Origin: a virus
Taxonomy: Duplodnaviria; Heunggongvirae; Uroviricota; Caudoviricetes
Virus record (IMG/VR): IMGVR_UViG_2531839131_000018
Strand: one strand, 5' to 3'
Length of the DNA stretch: 41,766 nt
Below, piece by piece: positions 4,510 to 11,022 of the stretch; the first letter of the stretch is position 1; every line of letters starts with the position of its first letter. The notes under the pieces are model-generated. The model was not told where the DNA came from, ran no database searches, and saw only the letters and a list, made by a program, of their open reading frames with translations. A program made the translations under genes and the position numbers.

Positions 4510-5091
4510 TATCGCGTCCTCAACAATGAATTTTGTGATGCGGTGCCTGGTGCCTCCAGGTGACGTTAACCAGTTAACAATTAACGCCGGATACAGAGAA
4601 CCCACCCATAAGAACCAATACGGAGGTCAACTAGCCTTTTTAACTGTTCCGCGTGCGCTTAGCCGCATTCACCGCATCACAAAATTCACTTTAAAAAGGG
4701 CGGCAGAGCAGTCACGGAGTAAAACTGATACCGCCAAACGTCACCAGAAAATTGATAACAGAGGGCGTTGCAGCGGAGTTGTCACTTAAGTGTATGGTCA
4801 ACCTGACAACCCGGTGCTTCATCGGGAAGACATGAACCCCCCGCCATACTTACCGCCGCGCCATTTCGCGGAGTGCCACAACCGGAAGCGCACGGTCGAC
4901 GAAAATTTAACGACAGGCTATCTATGAACCAGCTACCTCGCCGTGCGCTTTCGCGTTATGGTCTGACTTTTCAGGGAAATATCCTTTCAGTAAACTGTCA
5001 GTTCCGGATGCTCACCCGTGTCCGGCGCACGCACTCCACCTCACCCGTGGAGAACTCCTTAATTACCAACCTTAGCTTCGTTGGTTAGCTA

Positions 5092-5310
5092 TTAACGCGG
5101 GTATGTAATCATTCTGGCAATGCTTAATGCCGCTGCTTTTTCCAGCCTGGTGATATCCTGCTCCAGAGCGGACAGATTTTCAGCCTGCTTAGCCCTGGCT
5201 TCATTGGCCCATTTCAGATCCTGCGCTGCATTAATTTTCTGGCGCATCCACTCATAAAGTTCATCATCGGTATAGTCTGGCGCGATGATGACGGGTTCTC
5301 GTTTCTGCAT
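5092..5310 (-). CDS. Hypothetical small early protein (72 aa)
   Basis: MQKREPVIIAPDYTDDELYEWMRQ...; AAGGAG Shine-Dalgarno immediately upstream of the ATG. The same frame stays open upstream to 5907 but the internal start is better supported. Confidence 0.55.
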   Translation of the reverse strand: MQKREPVIIAPDYTDDELYEWMRQKINAAQDLKWANEARAKQAENLSALEQDITRLEKAAALSIARMITYPR

Positions 5311-5436
5311 GTCGACTCCTTGTGGTTCGTGTTGCCTGCTTTTAACCACATCAGGCGAGGTGGTATCCTGAAAGCCGACCAAAGCTTTACGGATAAATAA
5401 GTTATGTTGCAACCACCAATAAATCCGCTTAAAAAT

Positions 5437-5724
5437 ATGAAAATTGATTACTGGTATAAAGCACTTACAGTTGTTGGTGCTGCGTTGTTTGTCTTTAATG
5501 GAACATCTTTTTTTGACAGATACCCCGTTGTTCCACTGGCTTTTTTGTCCTCCGGTATTTTCTTCACTGGCCTTGGAGAGTGGATCAATCACCCTCTCAG
5601 AGTGAGATTTATTGGTCCCGGAGCCGTTGCCCGGGGGCATAACCGTTCTCCGTGCACACTCGGCATTATCTTCGATATATTGGGTGTCTGCCTGATTGTT
5701 ACAGGAGTCGTCAAATTCTTCTGA
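5437..5724 (+). CDS. Possible small membrane protein (about 95 aa), opposite strand to surrounding early genes; SieB-like superinfection-exclusion role is speculative
   Basis: Two hydrophobic helix-like segments (ALTVVGAALFVF, SSGIFFTGLGEW). No good Shine-Dalgarno; conflicts with an antisense ORF on the minus strand, so very uncertain. Confidence 0.25.
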   Translation: MKIDYWYKALTVVGAALFVFNGTSFFDRYPVVPLAFLSSGIFFTGLGEWINHPLRVRFIGPGAVARGHNRSPCTLGIIFDILGVCLIVTGVVKFF

Positions 5725-6005
5725 AGAGAATCCACACACAGGGCATACAACCGGAATACGGCAAATGATTTCACCCGGCTCGATGTGTGGGTACTCGCCA
5801 TCAATTTTTTGTTGCTCCCGTATGCCCATGTTGACCTCATTTCCCCTTAACGCCGGGGTAGCGGAACAAAAACCTGCTGCATAGTTAAAGTTGAACCCTG
5901 CCGTCATGTTCTTACGCCTCGGGCTGGCTACTTAACCCCTGACCACTGCCTGGTAACTCGAAGTATTGCCCGGCGTTCTGTGGGGCGGGGTGGGTTGGTG
6001 AACAC

Positions 6006-6035
6006 ATCATAAAACACACAAAATGTGTTAGTCAA
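6006..6035 (-). promoter_or_regulatory. Candidate leftward early promoter (PL-like) overlapping palindromic operator-like sites
   Basis: On the minus strand TTGACT (reverse complement of 6030-6035), 18-nt spacer, TATGAT (reverse complement of 6006-6011); palindromes AACACAT..ATGTGTT (6001-6029) and ACAC-A7-GTGT (6035-6049) overlap it. Confidence 0.4.
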
Positions 6036-6057
6036 CACAAAAAAAGTGTATAAAGGG

Positions 6058-6089
6058 ATAAAAAACTCCCATTCAAGAGGCGATGGGAG
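6058..6089 (-). terminator. Rho-independent terminator after the ParE-like gene
   Basis: Hairpin CTCCCAT-N10-ATGGGAG (6066-6089) followed on the minus strand by a U-run (A-run 6060-6065 on plus). Confidence 0.5.
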
Positions 6090-6097
6090 GTGGTTAG

Positions 6098-6388
6098 TTA
6101 TTCGCTGTTACTGGGATATTGTTGGCGAGCATGTGCCACGCTTACAATTTCAATGCTTGAGGCAGCTACTTTGTACAGTATTATGTAGTTAGGGTGAGCC
6201 ACTATCTCTCTCAATCCAGAAACCCGTTCGCTTGGCGGATATAGGTACGGATGCTCAGATAGGGGTAGTACAGATGTTTCAATGCGTATTTTTAGTCTGC
6301 GCGCTGCCGGAGGGTTCTCCTTGGCGATGTAAGTTATGATCTGACGCAAATCATCGCGAGCAGACGGTAACCATAATATGGGCAGCAT
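6098..6388 (-). CDS. parE: ParE/RelE-superfamily type II toxin (96 aa)
   Basis: MLPILWLPSARDDLRQIITYIAKENPPAARRLKIRIETSVLPLSEHPYLY..GLREIVAHPNYIILYKV..IEIVSVAHARQ matches the ParE pattern; start overlaps antitoxin stop by 1 nt. Confidence 0.8.
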   Translation of the reverse strand: MLPILWLPSARDDLRQIITYIAKENPPAARRLKIRIETSVLPLSEHPYLYPPSERVSGLREIVAHPNYIILYKVAASSIEIVSVAHARQQYPSNSE

Positions 6389-6579
6389 TACACGCTCTCG
6401 CTTTCCGTGGCAATTTGATTGATGATTTTTTCCATTTTTGCCATTACTTCGTCGTGCGGAATTGCCGGGCGTGGATCTGCCAAACTTGCTGCAACCTTGG
6501 CGCGCAACCATTCGTTATAGCTGTTTTCTTGCTCGATAGTTTCAAATTCTGAGACTATTGGCGAAAGAACCGTGTTCAT
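6388..6579 (-). CDS. Small antitoxin (63 aa), PaaA2-like by size and position
   Basis: 63-aa acidic ORF directly upstream of and overlapping the ParE-like gene; GAGAGG Shine-Dalgarno 6 nt upstream. Resemblance to PaaA2 of the PaaR2-PaaA2-ParE2 module is from memory. Confidence 0.7.
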   Translation of the reverse strand: MNTVLSPIVSEFETIEQENSYNEWLRAKVAASLADPRPAIPHDEVMAKMEKIINQIATESESV

Positions 6580-6605
6580 AATATACCTCTCCCGTATGGT
6601 TGTGA

Positions 6606-7004
6606 TTATGCTCGACGTCCTTTTTGAGCGGCGAGCCATCTTGCAACGGTGCGATCCATTGATTCTTTTTTGTCTTTCATGTCCTTAAGCATTTGTTCTT
6701 GCTCTTCTTCTGGGAACGCCCCAAATGTTTGAAGTAAATCTCTTTGGCGCGGACCTATTTTCATTGAGTCAGGCACTACAACCTGTTCATCCTCGCTCGG
6801 AGGAAGCATGAACCAAAAAATAGGTCGTGCGGTTATTTGTGAAAGTCGATCTAAATTGTCAGGATTTGGACTAACCAAGCCCGCAGCCCATCGCTGCACT
6901 GTTTGTTGCGACACCCCAACTAATTTCCCAAGCTCCGCTTGACTCCAGCCTGTTTCAGACAAGAGTTTCTTTATTCTATATGCAGTGATCTCGAGTGTTT
7001 TCAT
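6606..7004 (-). CDS. HTH (XRE/Cro-CI family) repressor, RacR/PaaR2-like; likely prophage immunity repressor (132 aa)
   Basis: HTH motif SQAELGKLVGVSQQTVQRWAAG; divergent from a Cro-like gene; operator-like palindromes in the 7005-7110 intergenic region; co-oriented with the downstream toxin pair. Confidence 0.75.
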   Translation of the reverse strand: MKTLEITAYRIKKLLSETGWSQAELGKLVGVSQQTVQRWAAGLVSPNPDNLDRLSQITARPIFWFMLPPSEDEQVVVPDSMKIGPRQRDLLQTFGAFPEEEQEQMLKDMKDKKESMDRTVARWLAAQKGRRA

Positions 7005-7040
7005 ACCAACAATTCTACTCAAAAAATGAGTAATACGCGA

Positions 7041-7080
7041 CACACAAAAAACGAGTTTACACATACACGTTTTTTGTGTA
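7041..7080. promoter_or_regulatory. Operator-like inverted repeat in the divergent repressor/cro intergenic region
   Basis: ACACAAAAAACG (7042-7053) and CGTTTTTTGTGT (7068-7079) are near-perfect reverse complements; candidate -35 TTTACA at 7056-7061 lies between them. Confidence 0.45.
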
Positions 7081-7110
7081 ACCTCCTTTCGCATAATGGA
7101 GGTACAAATA

Positions 7111-7383
7111 ATGAATGAACATATTAAGAAAAAGGTTGCGGAAAAATTCTCCCAGCGAGAACTGGCTATGCTGATGAGCACGAAACAACAAAGTGTATCT
7201 CGTTGGTTCAACTCTAAGTTCCCTGCATCAAGGGTGATTCATTTGTGTCAATTGATGCAGTGGGAGGTTGTTCCCCATGAGCTCCGACCAGACATATACC
7301 CTAACCCAACCGACGGTTTACCTGTTGGATTCAAGGTTAACACATCAAATGCACCGGAGTTGATTCATGAAAATCAAGCATGA
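7111..7383 (+). CDS. Cro-like / YdaS-like HTH protein (90 aa)
   Basis: GGAGGT Shine-Dalgarno 6 nt upstream; HTH-like segment SQRELAMLMSTKQQSVSRWF; divergent from the repressor. Confidence 0.65.
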   Translation: MNEHIKKKVAEKFSQRELAMLMSTKQQSVSRWFNSKFPASRVIHLCQLMQWEVVPHELRPDIYPNPTDGLPVGFKVNTSNAPELIHENQA

Positions 7384-7792
7384 ACACATCCGCATGGCGA
7401 TGAATGCCTGGGCGCATCCGGACGGCGAGAAAGTACCGGCTGCAGAGATTGCCAAAGCGTATTTTGAGCTGGGAATGACGTTTCCTGAACTGTACGGCTA
7501 CAGCCATCCGGAAGCCCTGGCTCGCAATACTCAGAAAATATTCCGCTGGGTGGAGAAAGACACCCCTGATGCTGTTGAAAAAATTCAGGCGTTGTTACCA
7601 GCGATCGAAAAAGCAATGCCACCTCTGCTGGTGGCCAGAATGCGCAGCCACAGTTCAGCTTATTTTCGGGAGCTGGTGGAGACGCGGGAGCGACTGGTGA
7701 GAGACGCTGATGATTTTGTCGCAGTGGCGATCGCTGGTTTCAACCAGATGAATCGTGGTGGTCCGGCAGGTAATGCAGTGGCTGTACATTAA
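7367..7792 (+). CDS. YdaT-like protein (141 aa; CII-like or toxin-like family, function uncertain)
   Basis: Position directly after the cro-like gene with overlapping start; length and composition fit YdaT-like proteins of Rac-type prophages (from memory). Confidence 0.55.
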   Translation: MKIKHEHIRMAMNAWAHPDGEKVPAAEIAKAYFELGMTFPELYGYSHPEALARNTQKIFRWVEKDTPDAVEKIQALLPAIEKAMPPLLVARMRSHSSAYFRELVETRERLVRDADDFVAVAIAGFNQMNRGGPAGNAVAVH

Positions 7793-7811
7793 GAACGTTT
7801 ATGGGGTTAGG

Positions 7812-8777
7812 ATGAAGCTCCTTTTTGCCGAACGCCCGCTGGTTATAAACACACAACTGGCTATGAAAATTGGTTTAAACGAGGCCATTGTGTTGCAGCA
7901 GCTGCATTACTGGCTGAGAGATACCAGTTCCGGCATGGAACACGATGGTGTTCGCTGGATTTATAACACAACGGATCAATGGCTGGAACAGTTTCCGTTC
8001 TGGTCAGAGTCAACGTTAAAGCGCGCGTTCGCAAGCCTGAAAACACAGGGGCTTTTGCGTAGCGAAAAGCTCAATAAGTCGAAGCGCGACATGACCAATT
8101 TCTACACGATTAATTACGAGAGTGAGCTTTTAGATGATGGCAAAGTGAGCGAATCGAGCAGGTCAAAATGCACCGCCCCATCAGGTCAAATTGACGCGAT
8201 GGAAGAGGTCAAAGTGAAACGTTCCATTGGTTCAAAACGACCCAATGTCATCAGGTCAAAATGGCCCGATGATCCTACAGAGATTACTACAGAGATTACT
8301 ACAGAGAATAAAAACACTTCTTGTCCGGACGCTTCGCAACCGGACGGACAGACAGCAGAACAGGATTTTTTAACCCGACATCCTGATGCAGTTGTGTTCA
8401 GTGTAAAAAAACGCCGATGGGGAAGCCAGGAAGATTTGGCGTGTGCGCAGTGGATCTGGGGGCGGGTTGTAAACCTGTACGAACAGGCTGCCAGCGACGA
8501 TGGCGAGATCACGCGACCGAAAGAGCCCAACTGGACGGAATGGGCCAATGACGTGCGCATGATGCGGATGCTGGATGGCAGAACTCACAGGCAAATTTGC
8601 GAAATGTTCAGCCGGGCGCAGCGGGATCCGTTCTGGATAAAAAACGTCAGGAGCCCGTCGAAACTCCGCGAAAAATGGGACGAACTGGCAATTCGTTTGT
8701 GGCGCGGTTCTGCGCAGCGTTGTGTGAATCACATTTCTGAACCGGACACCGAAATTCCGCCGGGATTCAGGGGGTAA
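7812..8777 (+). CDS. Phage replication initiation protein (O-like replisome organiser, 321 aa)
   Basis: Located directly upstream of a DnaC-like loader; contains an internal iteron array (ori) in a low-complexity linker (TEITTEITTE); N-terminal DNA-binding-like region. Confidence 0.75.
   Translation: MKLLFAERPLVINTQLAMKIGLNEAIVLQQLHYWLRDTSSGMEHDGVRWIYNTTDQWLEQFPFWSESTLKRAFASLKTQGLLRSEKLNKSKRDMTNFYTINYESELLDDGKVSESSRSKCTAPSGQIDAMEEVKVKRSIGSKRPNVIRSKWPDDPTEITTEITTENKNTSCPDASQPDGQTAEQDFLTRHPDAVVFSVKKRRWGSQEDLACAQWIWGRVVNLYEQAASDDGEITRPKEPNWTEWANDVRMMRMLDGRTHRQICEMFSRAQRDPFWIKNVRSPSKLREKWDELAIRLWRGSAQRCVNHISEPDTEIPPGFRG
8156..8310. repeat. Iteron array, candidate phage replication origin inside the O-like gene
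   Basis: Copies of (C)AGGTCAAA(A/T)TG at 8159-8170, 8181-8193, 8205-8216, 8252-8263 plus a degenerate copy near 8231; then tandem 12-mers TACAGAGATTAC at 8275-8298 and an A-rich stretch. Confidence 0.6.
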
Positions 8778-8783
8778 CGGGCC

Positions 8784-9530
8784 ATGAAAAATATTGCGAC
8801 AGGTGGTGTTCTTGAGCGTATCCGTAAGCTGGTCCCGCAGCATGTAATCGCGCCGTACCGGACAGTTGACGAGTGGCGAGAGTGGCAACTGGCAGAAGAG
8901 CGAAAACGTAGCGAGGAGATCAACCGCCAGAATCGCCAGTTGCGGGTGGAAAAAATCCTGAATCGTTCGGGCATCCAGCCTCTGCACAGCAAATGCTCGT
9001 TTGCGAATTATCAGGTGCAGAACGACGGGCAAAAACACGCGCTGAGCCAGGCAAAATCCATCGCTGACGAACTGATGACCGGGTGCACGAATTTTGTGTT
9101 CAGTGGTAAGCCGGGTACCGGAAAGAATCACCTTGCAGCCGCCATTGGTAATCATCTTCTGGCGAAAGGTCGCAGCGTGATTGTGATAACGGTGGCTGAT
9201 GTGATGCTGGCGTTACACAACAGCTACGACAACAAAAACTCAGGCGAAAAATTTTTACAGGGGTTGTGTGATGTTGACCTGCTTGTCCTGGATGAAATCG
9301 GAATGCAGCGGGATACGCGCAACGAGCAGGTCACGCTGAACCAGATAGTCGACCGCAGAACGGCTTCGATGCGTAGTGTCGGAATGCTGACGAATCTGAA
9401 CCACGTAGCGATGAGTACGCTTCTTGGCGAGCGTGTAATGGACCGCATGGTCATGAACGGTGGTCGCTGGGTGAATTTTAACTGGGAGAGCTGGCGTTCG
9501 AATGTCAGACACCTGAGGGTTGTGAAGTAA
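8784..9530 (+). CDS. DnaC-like helicase loader (IstB-like AAA+ ATPase, 248 aa)
   Basis: Walker A GKPGTGKNHLAAAIG, Walker B DLLVLDEIG; typical position after the replication initiator. Confidence 0.9.
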   Translation: MKNIATGGVLERIRKLVPQHVIAPYRTVDEWREWQLAEERKRSEEINRQNRQLRVEKILNRSGIQPLHSKCSFANYQVQNDGQKHALSQAKSIADELMTGCTNFVFSGKPGTGKNHLAAAIGNHLLAKGRSVIVITVADVMLALHNSYDNKNSGEKFLQGLCDVDLLVLDEIGMQRDTRNEQVTLNQIVDRRTASMRSVGMLTNLNHVAMSTLLGERVMDRMVMNGGRWVNFNWESWRSNVRHLRVVK

Positions 9531-9551
9531 TTTTGTCCGGAGGAAATTTTA

Positions 9552-10304
9552 ATGGAAACCGTTTTTGACGCGCTGAAAGCAATGGGAAAAGCCACATCCA
9601 TAGAACTTGCTACGCGACTTGATATCAGTCGTGAAGAAGTGCTGAACGAACTATGGGAACTGAAAAAGGCTGGTTTTGTTGATAAAAGCGCGTACACCTG
9701 GCGTGTGGCTGATAACAACGTTCAGCAGGAACAGCCAGCGCAGGCAGAACTGCCGGAAGAAACCACCACAGCAACAGTAGCGAAAATCTCAGAGTGCGAT
9801 TTAACCGCGACGATTGAACAACGCGGACCACAAACGGCGGATGAGCTGGATGCGGTGTTCGGTACCACATCACGCAAAGTGGCTTCAACGCTGGCAATGG
9901 CAATCAGCAAAGGTCGTCTGATTCGCGTAAATCAGGACGGTAAATTTCGTTACTGCATGCCGGGCGATAATTTACCAGCAGAGCCGAAAGCCGCGCTGGT
10001 AACGGAAAGTGATGGTAAGGCCTTTCCTCAGCCAGCAGGTGTTGCGTTACCAGTACAGGAAGTTGCAACACAGGAAGATATAAAAACAGAAACTGTGGCT
10101 GATATTGTGCAATCGTTACCATCGTTTACTGAAACGCGAGCGGATGACCTGGTTTTACCATCGCTGCATATGGCAAACCGCGAATTGCGTCGGGCGAAAA
10201 GTCATGTCCAGAAGTGGGAGCGAGTCTGTGCCGCGCTGCGGGAGCTGAACAAGTACCGGGATATTCTGCGGGATATTGCCGCCACCAGAGAACAGCAGCG
10301 GTGA
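9552..10304 (+). CDS. Hypothetical protein with two winged-helix-like segments (250 aa)
   Basis: ORF with AGGA upstream; repeated motifs [17 protein letters not shown] and [16 protein letters not shown] suggest DNA binding; no family recognised. Confidence 0.55.
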
Positions 10305-10618
10305 GTGGCTGGGAGAAGTGGTGCCGTGCGGAAATTATGATACTCCGGCAGTGTGCGGGAGCGATGACAGTCGAAAGCATCGGTTATCTGATTGGCCGTA
10401 GTGAGTCAGCCGTCAGGACGAAAGCGCGGGAACTGGGTATCAGTCTGATGTTGCGGGGTGATTTTCACCAGTCGGTAAAAATTCCCCAGAGCAGTGTTGA
10501 GGTGATACGACAGCTACATGAGCAGGGCATTTCAGGTCGCGAGATAGCGGAAAAATTCGAAATGCCGCTGCGCACGGTGAATAACTATGTTTATTTCGAC
10601 AGGAGGGTACAAGGGTGA
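10303..10618 (+). CDS. Hypothetical HTH-containing protein (about 105 aa; start uncertain, GTG 10303 or ATG 10337)
   Basis: Two HTH-like segments (ESIGYLIGRSESAVRTKAREL, SGREIAEKFEMPLRTVNNY); start overlaps upstream stop. Confidence 0.45.
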
Positions 10619-11022
10619 GGGTTTATATCGCCGGTCCAATGACGGGGTATGAAAATTTCAACCGTGAGGCGTTTCACAAGGCAGAAGAGGAACTGAAACG
10701 GGAAGGGCATACAGTCTTGAACCCGGCAGTACTTCCGGACGGGCTGACACAGCCGCACTACATGGATATCTGCATGGCAATGATACGTAGCGTGGATGCG
10801 ATTTATATGCTGAAAGACTGGCAACGGTCAGCAGGCGCTAAAGCGGAAATGGCTCTGGCGGAGAAGCTAGGGCATGTGGTTGTTTTTCAGAGGGGGCGAT
10901 ATGCCGATTCTCTGGTTTCAGGAGGTGTGGGAAAAAGAAATGTGGGAAGGTCTTGTGATTGTGGCCGAAACAGTTCTTTTATTATGGTCTGTGATTGCGT
11001 GTATTTTTATGATTTATTGTGA
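10615..11022 (+). CDS. DUF4406-like / nucleoside 2-deoxyribosyltransferase-like protein (135 aa)
   Basis: N-terminal MRVYIAGPMTGYENFNREAF is the hallmark opening of DUF4406 proteins (from memory); AGGAGGG Shine-Dalgarno 7 nt upstream of a GTG start overlapping the upstream stop. Confidence 0.65.
   Translation: MRVYIAGPMTGYENFNREAFHKAEEELKREGHTVLNPAVLPDGLTQPHYMDICMAMIRSVDAIYMLKDWQRSAGAKAEMALAEKLGHVVVFQRGRYADSLVSGGVGKRNVGRSCDCGRNSSFIMVCDCVYFYDLL

Follow-up and report, generated by a model that had tools for sequence, protein, structure and literature searches.

Where in its genome does a lambdoid prophage begin to replicate, and which part of the sequence ties that start to the prophage's own initiator protein? 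Both questions are raised by a stretch of 41,766 nucleotides (nt) from a virus of the class Caudoviricetes (IMG/VR record IMGVR_UViG_2531839131_000018), which is called the window below and is always meant at its full length. Within it, an open reading frame (ORF) at 7812-8777 encodes an O-like replication initiator, and a preliminary description of the DNA, made without database searches, had noticed repeats at 8156-8310 in this gene that it took for the iteron array of a lambda-type origin. Judged by analogy with lambda, the segment from 8133 to 8345 is very probably the vegetative replication origin of the prophage, lodged within the linker-coding part of its own initiator gene. What does this segment consist of? 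Its elements are the following.

8133-8155, + strand: iteron 0 (degenerate), GATGATGGCAAAGTGAGCGAATC, in the 23-nt register of the array, found with a relaxed repeat search and a pattern chain
8156-8178, + strand: iteron 1, GAGCAGGTCAAAATGCACCGCCC
8179-8201, + strand: iteron 2, CATCAGGTCAAATTGACGCGATG, the reference copy of the main repeat family
8202-8224, + strand: iteron 3, GAAGAGGTCAAAGTGAAACGTTC
8225-8247, + strand: iteron 4 (degenerate core, strong dyad), CATTGGTTCAAAACGACCCAATG, also written GGTTCAAAACGACC
8249-8271, + strand: iteron 5, CATCAGGTCAAAATGGCCCGATG
8275-8310, + strand: three tandem 12-mers, CTACAGAGATTA, CTACAGAGATTA, and CTACAGAGAATA
8306-8319, + strand: A-rich run (the A-run proper is 8306-8315), GAATAAAAACACTT, which closes the A+T-rich block
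8323-8345, + strand: inverted repeat, GTCCGGACGC-TTC-GCAACCGGAC

To take the iterons first, positions 8133-8271 are filled by six abutting 23-bp imperfect palindromes, four of them good copies and two degenerate, with spacings of 23, 23, 23, 23, and 24 nt. The best palindrome is iteron 2, in which 18 of the 23 positions agree with the reverse complement by hand count. A repeat search returned 23-nt units at 8179, 8202, 8225, and 8249 and 17-nt units at 8159, 8182, 8205, and 8252. The pattern RGKTCAAARYG occurs five times in the 41.7-kb window versus 0.44 expected, a number reached in none of 100 shuffles; four of the five matches lie at 8160-8263, and the fifth stands alone at 40844. In many enterobacterial relatives, GATC (Dam) sites are found repeatedly at the outer iteron ends (GATC...GATC consensus); in the window, one such site lies at 8270-8273, where iteron 5 gives way to the 12-mers. 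Methylation or control by SeqA may be connected with these sites.

The 12-mers that follow have the unit (C)TACAGAGATTA, and Tandem Repeats Finder reports them at 8275-8307 with a period of 12, 2.8 copies, and a 100% match. Their core, ACAGAGAWTA, is present three times in the window against 0.07 expected, each time within 8277-8310. The regional minimum of G+C content, 0.32, falls at 8275-8324. By analogy, the 12-mers are proposed to be a DNA-unwinding and helicase-entry element, the counterpart of the A+T-rich block of lambda. The inverted repeat at 8323-8345 is weak by itself (DNA fold of -7 kcal/mol, z of -1.8), yet many relatives keep GTCnGG...CCnGAC with inner arms that differ and nevertheless remain complementary (TTCC/GGAA, TTGC/GCAA, TTTC/GAAA). 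From sequence comparison, it is read as the counterpart of the repeat to the right of lambda's A+T-rich block.

How does this compare with what had first been described? The repeats are real and far above chance, but there are six units rather than five, and they start at 8133 rather than 8156. The element as a whole extends 23 nt further left and about 35 nt further right, where it takes in the inverted repeat, which had gone unmentioned. The tandem 12-mers and the A-rich stretch are present as described, and so is the placement in the low-complexity linker of the O-like protein: 8133-8345 lies inside the initiator ORF, over predicted-disordered amino acids (aa) 108-174. The lambda-type arrangement of an origin within O fits both the order of the elements and the homology of the initiator's C-terminal part to lambda O (E 2e-26).

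Does the initiator recognize the array that its gene contains? An answer can be sought in the covariation between the N-terminal domain (N-domain) of the initiator and the iterons, assessed without regard to phylogeny in 48 representatives whose iteron consensus could be scored. Residue 67, a serine in the window, stands at the start of a predicted helix (66-78) that, in the structural model, is likely the recognition helix of a winged-helix fold. When the base 5' of the central CAAAATG is T, this residue is Ser in 16 of 22 cases; with G it is Asp (16/17), and with A it is Lys or Arg (6/6). The mutual information between residue 67 and this position, -1, is 1.37 bits (the next-best column, residue 66, reaches 0.69), while that with the dyad-related position +7 is 1.24 bits, second highest of all protein-by-DNA pairs. 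In 5000 shuffles the observed value was never reached, even as the maximum over all columns. The Ser-T pairing is found in Enterobacteria, Xenorhabdus, Staphylococcus, and Macrococcoides; Asp-G in Pseudomonas, Erwinia, Campylobacterales, Comamonas, and Acinetobacter; and Lys/Arg-A in Pantoea, Niallia, and Staphylococcus phage 96. Binding of the palindromic iterons by N-domain dimers would be expected to leave such a pattern, which also lends support to the earlier suggestion that the iteron sequence would define replication specificity.

The covariation of residue 67 speaks to binding, however, and not to firing. Might the array be an initiator-binding site that serves mainly for control (autoregulation, copy-number handcuffing, or exclusion of related phages), with the true origin elsewhere in the prophage? 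Plasmid iteron arrays serve both control and initiation (PMC5043065), and cloned lambda ori fragments are reported to be able to inhibit related phages (PMC3349717, PMC4488673). A role in control with an origin elsewhere is nonetheless improbable. The array is joined to A+T-rich repeats and an inverted repeat in the order of the functional lambda origin, the pattern search found no second iteron cluster in the 41.7-kb window, and the 12-mers occur in it only at 8275-8310.

The origin reading can also be followed through the relatives of the initiator. The N-domain (about 105 aa, motif LNEAIVLQQLHYWL) was detected by tblastn in 158 phage records, in addition to prophages of many genera, and the hosts of these phages include Escherichia, Klebsiella, Erwinia, Pseudomonas, Vibrio, Staphylococcus, Bacillus, Lactobacillus, Bacteroides, and Flavobacterium. 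Just 3' of the N-domain DNA, most proteobacterial and many Firmicute members carry two to six iterons; the iteron-bearing relatives belong to the Gamma-, Beta-, and Deltaproteobacteria, the Campylobacterota, and the Firmicutes. Their spacing is 23 nt in 90 of 142 cases and 22-24 nt in 120 of 142. The centre, CAAAATG, is constant, and the arms are lineage specific (GGTCA/TGACC, GGGCA/TGCCC, GTGCA/TGCAC, GGACA/TGTCC, GATCA/TGATC, or TATCA/TGATA). After the iterons, 38 of 69 representatives have two to five tandem copies of (T/A)ACAGAGA(Y)TAC. The carriers are Gamma-, Beta-, and Deltaproteobacteria, Campylobacterales, and Firmicutes, and phages of Bacteroides and Flavobacterium have ACAGATA variants. 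Successive copies are 12 nt apart in 67 cases and 9-11 nt apart in 11 (nine of these at 11 nt), and at the shorter spacings the CAGAGA words are read in other frames.

What comes after these repeats varies. The C-terminal domain, lambda-O-like in the window, is unrelated in PEp14, AF, SopranoGao, and Staphylococcus phage 96, and the ACAGAGA repeats remain in place regardless of the type of C-terminal domain and of helicase partner (none, DnaC-like, DnaB-like, or primase-helicase). Taken with the changes of frame noted above and the fixed codons described below, this shows that the word is maintained at the DNA level and goes together with the module of N-domain and iterons. A second alternative starts from the same variation, in that the type of C-terminal domain switches right after the block of 12-mers and inverted repeat: the conserved DNA, above all the 12-mers where the N- and C-terminal domains meet, would be a recombination linker for swapping initiator domains and would have no role in initiation. 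This is very unlikely, as ACAGAGA words are shared among Firmicutes, Campylobacterota, and Proteobacteria, which are too distant for ongoing homologous exchange, and a linker would leave unexplained both the tandem periodicity of 11-12 nt and a set of invariant codons (ACA and GAG, described below).

Among the uncharacterized homologues are those of Escherichia phages mEp460 and HannyBb, Klebsiella phages Kp4882-3 and SopranoGao, Erwinia phage PEp14, Pseudomonas phages AF and 8P, Staphylococcus phages 96 and 42E, and Lactobacillus phage mv4. They share the N-domain, with 43-93% identity to that of the window (93% in mEp460_ev081), and differ from the window in iteron arms, C-terminal domains, and helicase partners. 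Most have CAAAATG-centred iterons at the matching position, followed by ACAGAGA repeats; in phage 8P the spacing criterion picked out no array, and in AF and mv4 any copies are weak or variant. Their records have no origin annotated. In mEp460_ev081 (L002, 2495-3902) and mEp460_4F5 (L004), the same initiator, iterons, and 12-mers are present with no loader gene downstream, the next genes being annotated as LygF and a hypothetical protein. This replicon type can apparently function with host loaders alone.

Not every member has the full set of DNA elements. Nine Bacillaceae members (L149, L167, L168, L163, L172, L157, L164, L156, and L176) have the N-domain and an acidic linker and lack both iterons and ACAGAGA repeats. 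They serve as natural negative controls, showing that the N-domain does not automatically generate such DNA; in these members, either the origin is elsewhere or the protein has another role. Three others, from Bacillus and relatives (L141, L146, and L153), carry ACAGAGA 12-mers at about nt 400-460 of the gene, with CAAAATG iterons weak or absent, and iterons and 12-mers can therefore be uncoupled. A few copies are oddly labelled (L099, L100, L158, and L161): near-identical Escherichia-type copies in metagenome-assembled genomes labelled Bacillota or Veillonella, and Staphylococcus-type copies in records labelled Nocardioides or Micromonospora. These are probably binning or contamination artefacts.

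One inherent complication of an origin located inside a gene is that the DNA must also encode a protein. Which of the two is being conserved? Since 23 is not a multiple of 3, the six iterons fall in three frames (0, 2, 1, 0, 2, and 2), and the same DNA word is read as RSK, GQI, EVK, or GSK. Diversity was compared in 83 close homologous genes (61 distinct), all of 966 nt. Third codon positions have a mean pairwise diversity of 0.143 (N-domain) and 0.197 (C-terminal domain), which falls to 0.037 within the iterons, 0.025 within the 12-mers, and 0.032 within the inverted repeat. Over 8156-8350 as a whole it is 0.034, compared with 0.172 in the rest of the gene, or about 5-fold lower (Mann-Whitney p 2.5e-9; 61 genes). 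First and second codon positions show no extra conservation in the origin segment relative to the domains, and selection therefore acts on the DNA sequence itself and not on the peptide. The codons tell the same story for the 12-mers. When blocks were picked within the linker by the peptide TExT alone, the first Thr codon was ACA and the Glu codon GAG in 79 of 79 instances each, while elsewhere in the same genes these codons account for 26% and 46%. No RNA element was found at 5000-11000 (no Rfam match at E <= 0.1). No internal promoter or terminator was found at 8100-8400, with counts at or under the shuffle expectation, and DnaA boxes gave chance-level matches in the window and none at 8100-8400.

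The last alternative, that the repeats are a by-product of peptide repeats or compositional bias in a low-complexity linker and have no function as DNA, can point to the 12-mers being in frame (coding TEITTEITTE) and to the predicted disorder of the linker, but it is scarcely credible and was rejected, as was the suspicion that the repeats merely mirror amino acids without periodic spacing, given the strict 23-nt period across three frames, the third-position conservation, the fixed synonymous codons, and the occurrence in several lineages of the CAGAGA word at 11-nt spacing in other frames.

If 8133-8345 is the origin, how might it work? In the mechanism proposed, dimers of the N-terminal winged-helix domain would bind each 23-bp palindromic iteron, with the start of helix 66-78 (Ser67) reading the base pair that flanks the CAAAATG centre in each half-site. 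The six phased, A-tract-centred sites would wrap and bend the DNA into an O-some-like complex, and this complex, together with negative supercoiling and rightward transcription, would open the adjacent block of 12-mers and A-rich sequence. The C-terminal domain and the DnaT-like tail would then recruit DnaB, with either the phage DnaC-like loader or host DnaC, and the loader would put the helicase on the opened strands. The conservation of the exact 12-mer sequence suggests specific recognition, possibly by an invariant part of the N-domain. More speculatively, the ACAGAGA(Y)TAC 11-12-mers could be an undescribed sequence-specific opening or helicase-entry element, read in double- or single-stranded form by the invariant N-domain, and this element would be combined with an arm code at residue 67 (Ser-T, Asp-G, Lys/Arg-A). 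It would then be comparable to the 13-mers of oriC, the DnaA-trios, and the 13-mers of RK2. This proposal is tentative and on balance doubtful. Among the papers listed by literature searches on the 12-mers (as DNA words), the peptide TEITTE, and the iterons of this family, none describes the ACAGAGA element.

Several points weigh against taking 8133-8345 as a working lambda-type origin. The papers searched contain no experiment that shows firing of the origin or binding by the initiator, be it for the window or for a relative in this initiator family. The N-domain has no similarity to the N-terminal half of lambda O that BLASTP could detect, and no Pfam family was found for the initiator at E <= 0.01, nor for nine diverse members at E <= 5. 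The assignment of a recognition helix is tentative, coming as it does from a low-confidence model. The covariation statistics ignore phylogeny, though each pairing recurs in distant lineages. The 12-mer block, at a G+C content of 0.32, is just moderately A+T rich and is less purine-asymmetric than that of lambda. Finally, the homologue of the central tail fibre J (36305-39797) is split into two overlapping ORFs, 36305-38035 and 37947-39797, which suggests a frameshift; the prophage may be defective as a phage, or this may be a sequencing error.

What of the proteins that would act at the origin? The genes around it, with the parts of the initiator, are as follows.

7096-7383, + strand: gene for a YdaS-like Cro analogue (Pfam YdaS_toxin)
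7367-7792, + strand: gene for a YdaT-like CII analogue (Pfam YdaT_toxin); the PHROG assignments of the YdaS/YdaT pair are 35 and 163
7812-8777, + strand: gene for the O-like replication initiator, an ORF of 321 aa from ATG (PHROG 391)
Initiator aa 1 to about 105: N-terminal winged-helix-like domain
Initiator aa about 108-174: disordered linker, whose coding region carries the origin
Initiator aa about 180-297: lambda-O-like C-terminal domain
Initiator aa 298-321 (window 8703-8774): DnaT/YdaU-like tail
8784-9530, + strand: gene for a DnaC-like AAA+ helicase loader (PRK12377, Pfam IstB_IS21, PHROG 50)

The two proteins named in the preliminary description, O-like and DnaC-like, are both recognizable in database searches. 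The initiator matches PHROG 391 ("replication initiation O-like") at E 2e-89, and its residues 151-294 align with lambda O residues 139-270 at 36% identity over 144 columns (BLASTP, E 2e-26). In the window, this alignment starts with the 12-mer block, which faces the peptide that the A+T-rich block of lambda encodes. The N-domain gave faint winged-helix hints (PadR, Cdc6_C, and HTH_5), all above E 0.1. An AlphaFold2 model of the initiator has a mean predicted local distance difference test score of 56, falling to about 24 for aa 108-174, exactly the stretch that the origin segment encodes, and a BFVD fold search, treated as weak, returned phage replication initiators and helix-turn-helix proteins, with lambda O absent. 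The loader scores 496 bits against NCBIfam PRK12377 (cut-off 389; E 2e-149) and 315 bits against the DnaC equivalog, under the cut-off of 357. It is presumed to be the initiator's partner.

The C-terminal tail of the initiator is a feature of its own. The last 22-24 residues match the C terminus of Escherichia coli DnaT (PDB 2ru8, 6aep, and 9zbt) and carry the motif ...VNHISEPDTEIPPGFRG, and the last 19 match YdaU of the Rac prophage at E 4e-06, the rest remaining unaligned; lambda O has no such tail. The tail may be a portable motif that engages DnaB or DnaC. In E. coli, Rac, and the window, the tail-bearing gene lies directly upstream of a dnaC-type gene. Is the one always linked to the other? 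Among relatives, 18 genes had the tail with a downstream dnaC-like gene, 31 had the tail without it, and 13 had the dnaC-like gene without the tail. Strict linkage was rejected, 31 of the 49 tail-bearing genes being without a phage dnaC-like gene.

Upstream of the initiator gene are a divergent helix-turn-helix repressor gene and the YdaS- and YdaT-like genes; these two belong with the initiator gene to one rightward operon, and transcription through the origin would arrive from them. The window as a whole is a lambdoid prophage with integrase, RecE-like exonuclease, Q, terminase, portal, protease-capsid, tape measure, and J, and its best E. coli matches over 7000-9600 have merely 90-94% identity. 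At 6098-6639, on the - strand between the repressor and the leftward early region, are two small overlapping ORFs (83 aa and 137 aa) that look like a toxin-antitoxin pair by size and arrangement.

Why does this origin matter? For this prophage, it pinpoints the likeliest replication start and the sequence that would set its specificity, and it bears on incompatibility, exclusion, and hybrid formation among the lambdoid prophages of Escherichia. Taken alone, this prophage's case would not surprise a specialist; the regularities across the family are testable and may be new, namely, an iteron centre that stays constant, an arm code of one residue, and ACAGAGA repeats shared across phyla. They offer a recipe for finding origins in unannotated phages and prophages: look in the initiator linker for 23-bp CAAAATG-centred palindromes and then for ACAGAGA repeats. 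Residue 67 provides a testable specificity rule, and the 12-mers a candidate unwinding element conserved in its exact sequence. Should both the 12-mer element and the residue-67 code prove true, one compact set of rules would make both the location of the origin and the specificity of the replicon predictable across a large class of phages and prophages from several bacterial phyla.

How does the proposed origin compare with known systems? Iteron plasmids (F, RK2, pPS10, and P1) likewise have phased direct repeats of about 22 bp beside an unwinding element of short tandem repeats (13-mers), and there a winged-helix Rep protein binds the repeats and one strand of the opened element (PMC5043065). 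In the window, by contrast, the initiator gene itself contains the origin, the palindromic form of the iterons implies binding by dimers, and there are no nearby DnaA boxes. Pfam searches, including nine diverse members, gave no match of the window initiator to the Rep_3/RepA family. Closer in gene order is the Rac module (ydaS-ydaT-ydaU-ydaV, with oriJ), which has the same YdaS, YdaT, and DnaC-like YdaV families and for which oriJ has been reported as an active origin (PMC3945230). Its YdaU shares with the initiator the C-terminal tail ...PD..IPPGFRG but is a DUF1376 protein (RefSeq, K-12 record), and the initiator was rejected as a YdaU homologue because the last 19 residues alone align.

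The closest comparison is with lambda. In lambdoid phages, the origin is made up of iterons and an A+T-rich tract and sits midway along O; the O protein bends the iterons on binding them and binds single-stranded DNA as well (PMC7466680, PMC5043065). For unwinding, two iterons and the A+T block are enough (PMC7466680; PMC5043065). The lambda record shows four iterons, ATCCCTCAAAACGAGGGA and three variants, spaced by 20, 24, and 23 nt, and then the A+T-rich block and an inverted repeat, GTCAGAGAATTC..GAATCCTCTGAC. Like the window, lambda has its origin within the initiator gene, in the part that separates the domain for DNA binding from that for partner binding, with the elements in the same order (iterons, A+T-rich block, inverted repeat) and the genes in the same cro-cII-O-loader operon layout (PMC7466680). 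Of the iteron comparisons called for in the preliminary description, that with lambda gives shared features: the iterons of both systems have dyad symmetry, a spacing of 20-24 nt, the centre TCAAAAYGA, and variable palindromic arms. The arms themselves differ, GGTCA/TGACC in the window versus TCCCT/AGGGA in lambda, as does the number of units (six versus four), and the A+T block is a tandem 12-mer (ACAGAGATTACT) in the window versus a purine-rich run in lambda. The partner gene of the window encodes a DnaC/IstB-type AAA+ loader and not lambda P, and the initiator has an N-domain not detectably similar to that of lambda O and an extra DnaT-like tail at its C terminus. Overall, sequence comparison supports a lambda-type origin in the window, belonging to a replicon type that differs from lambda in its N-domain, its iteron specificity, its 12-mer block, and its DnaC-like partner.

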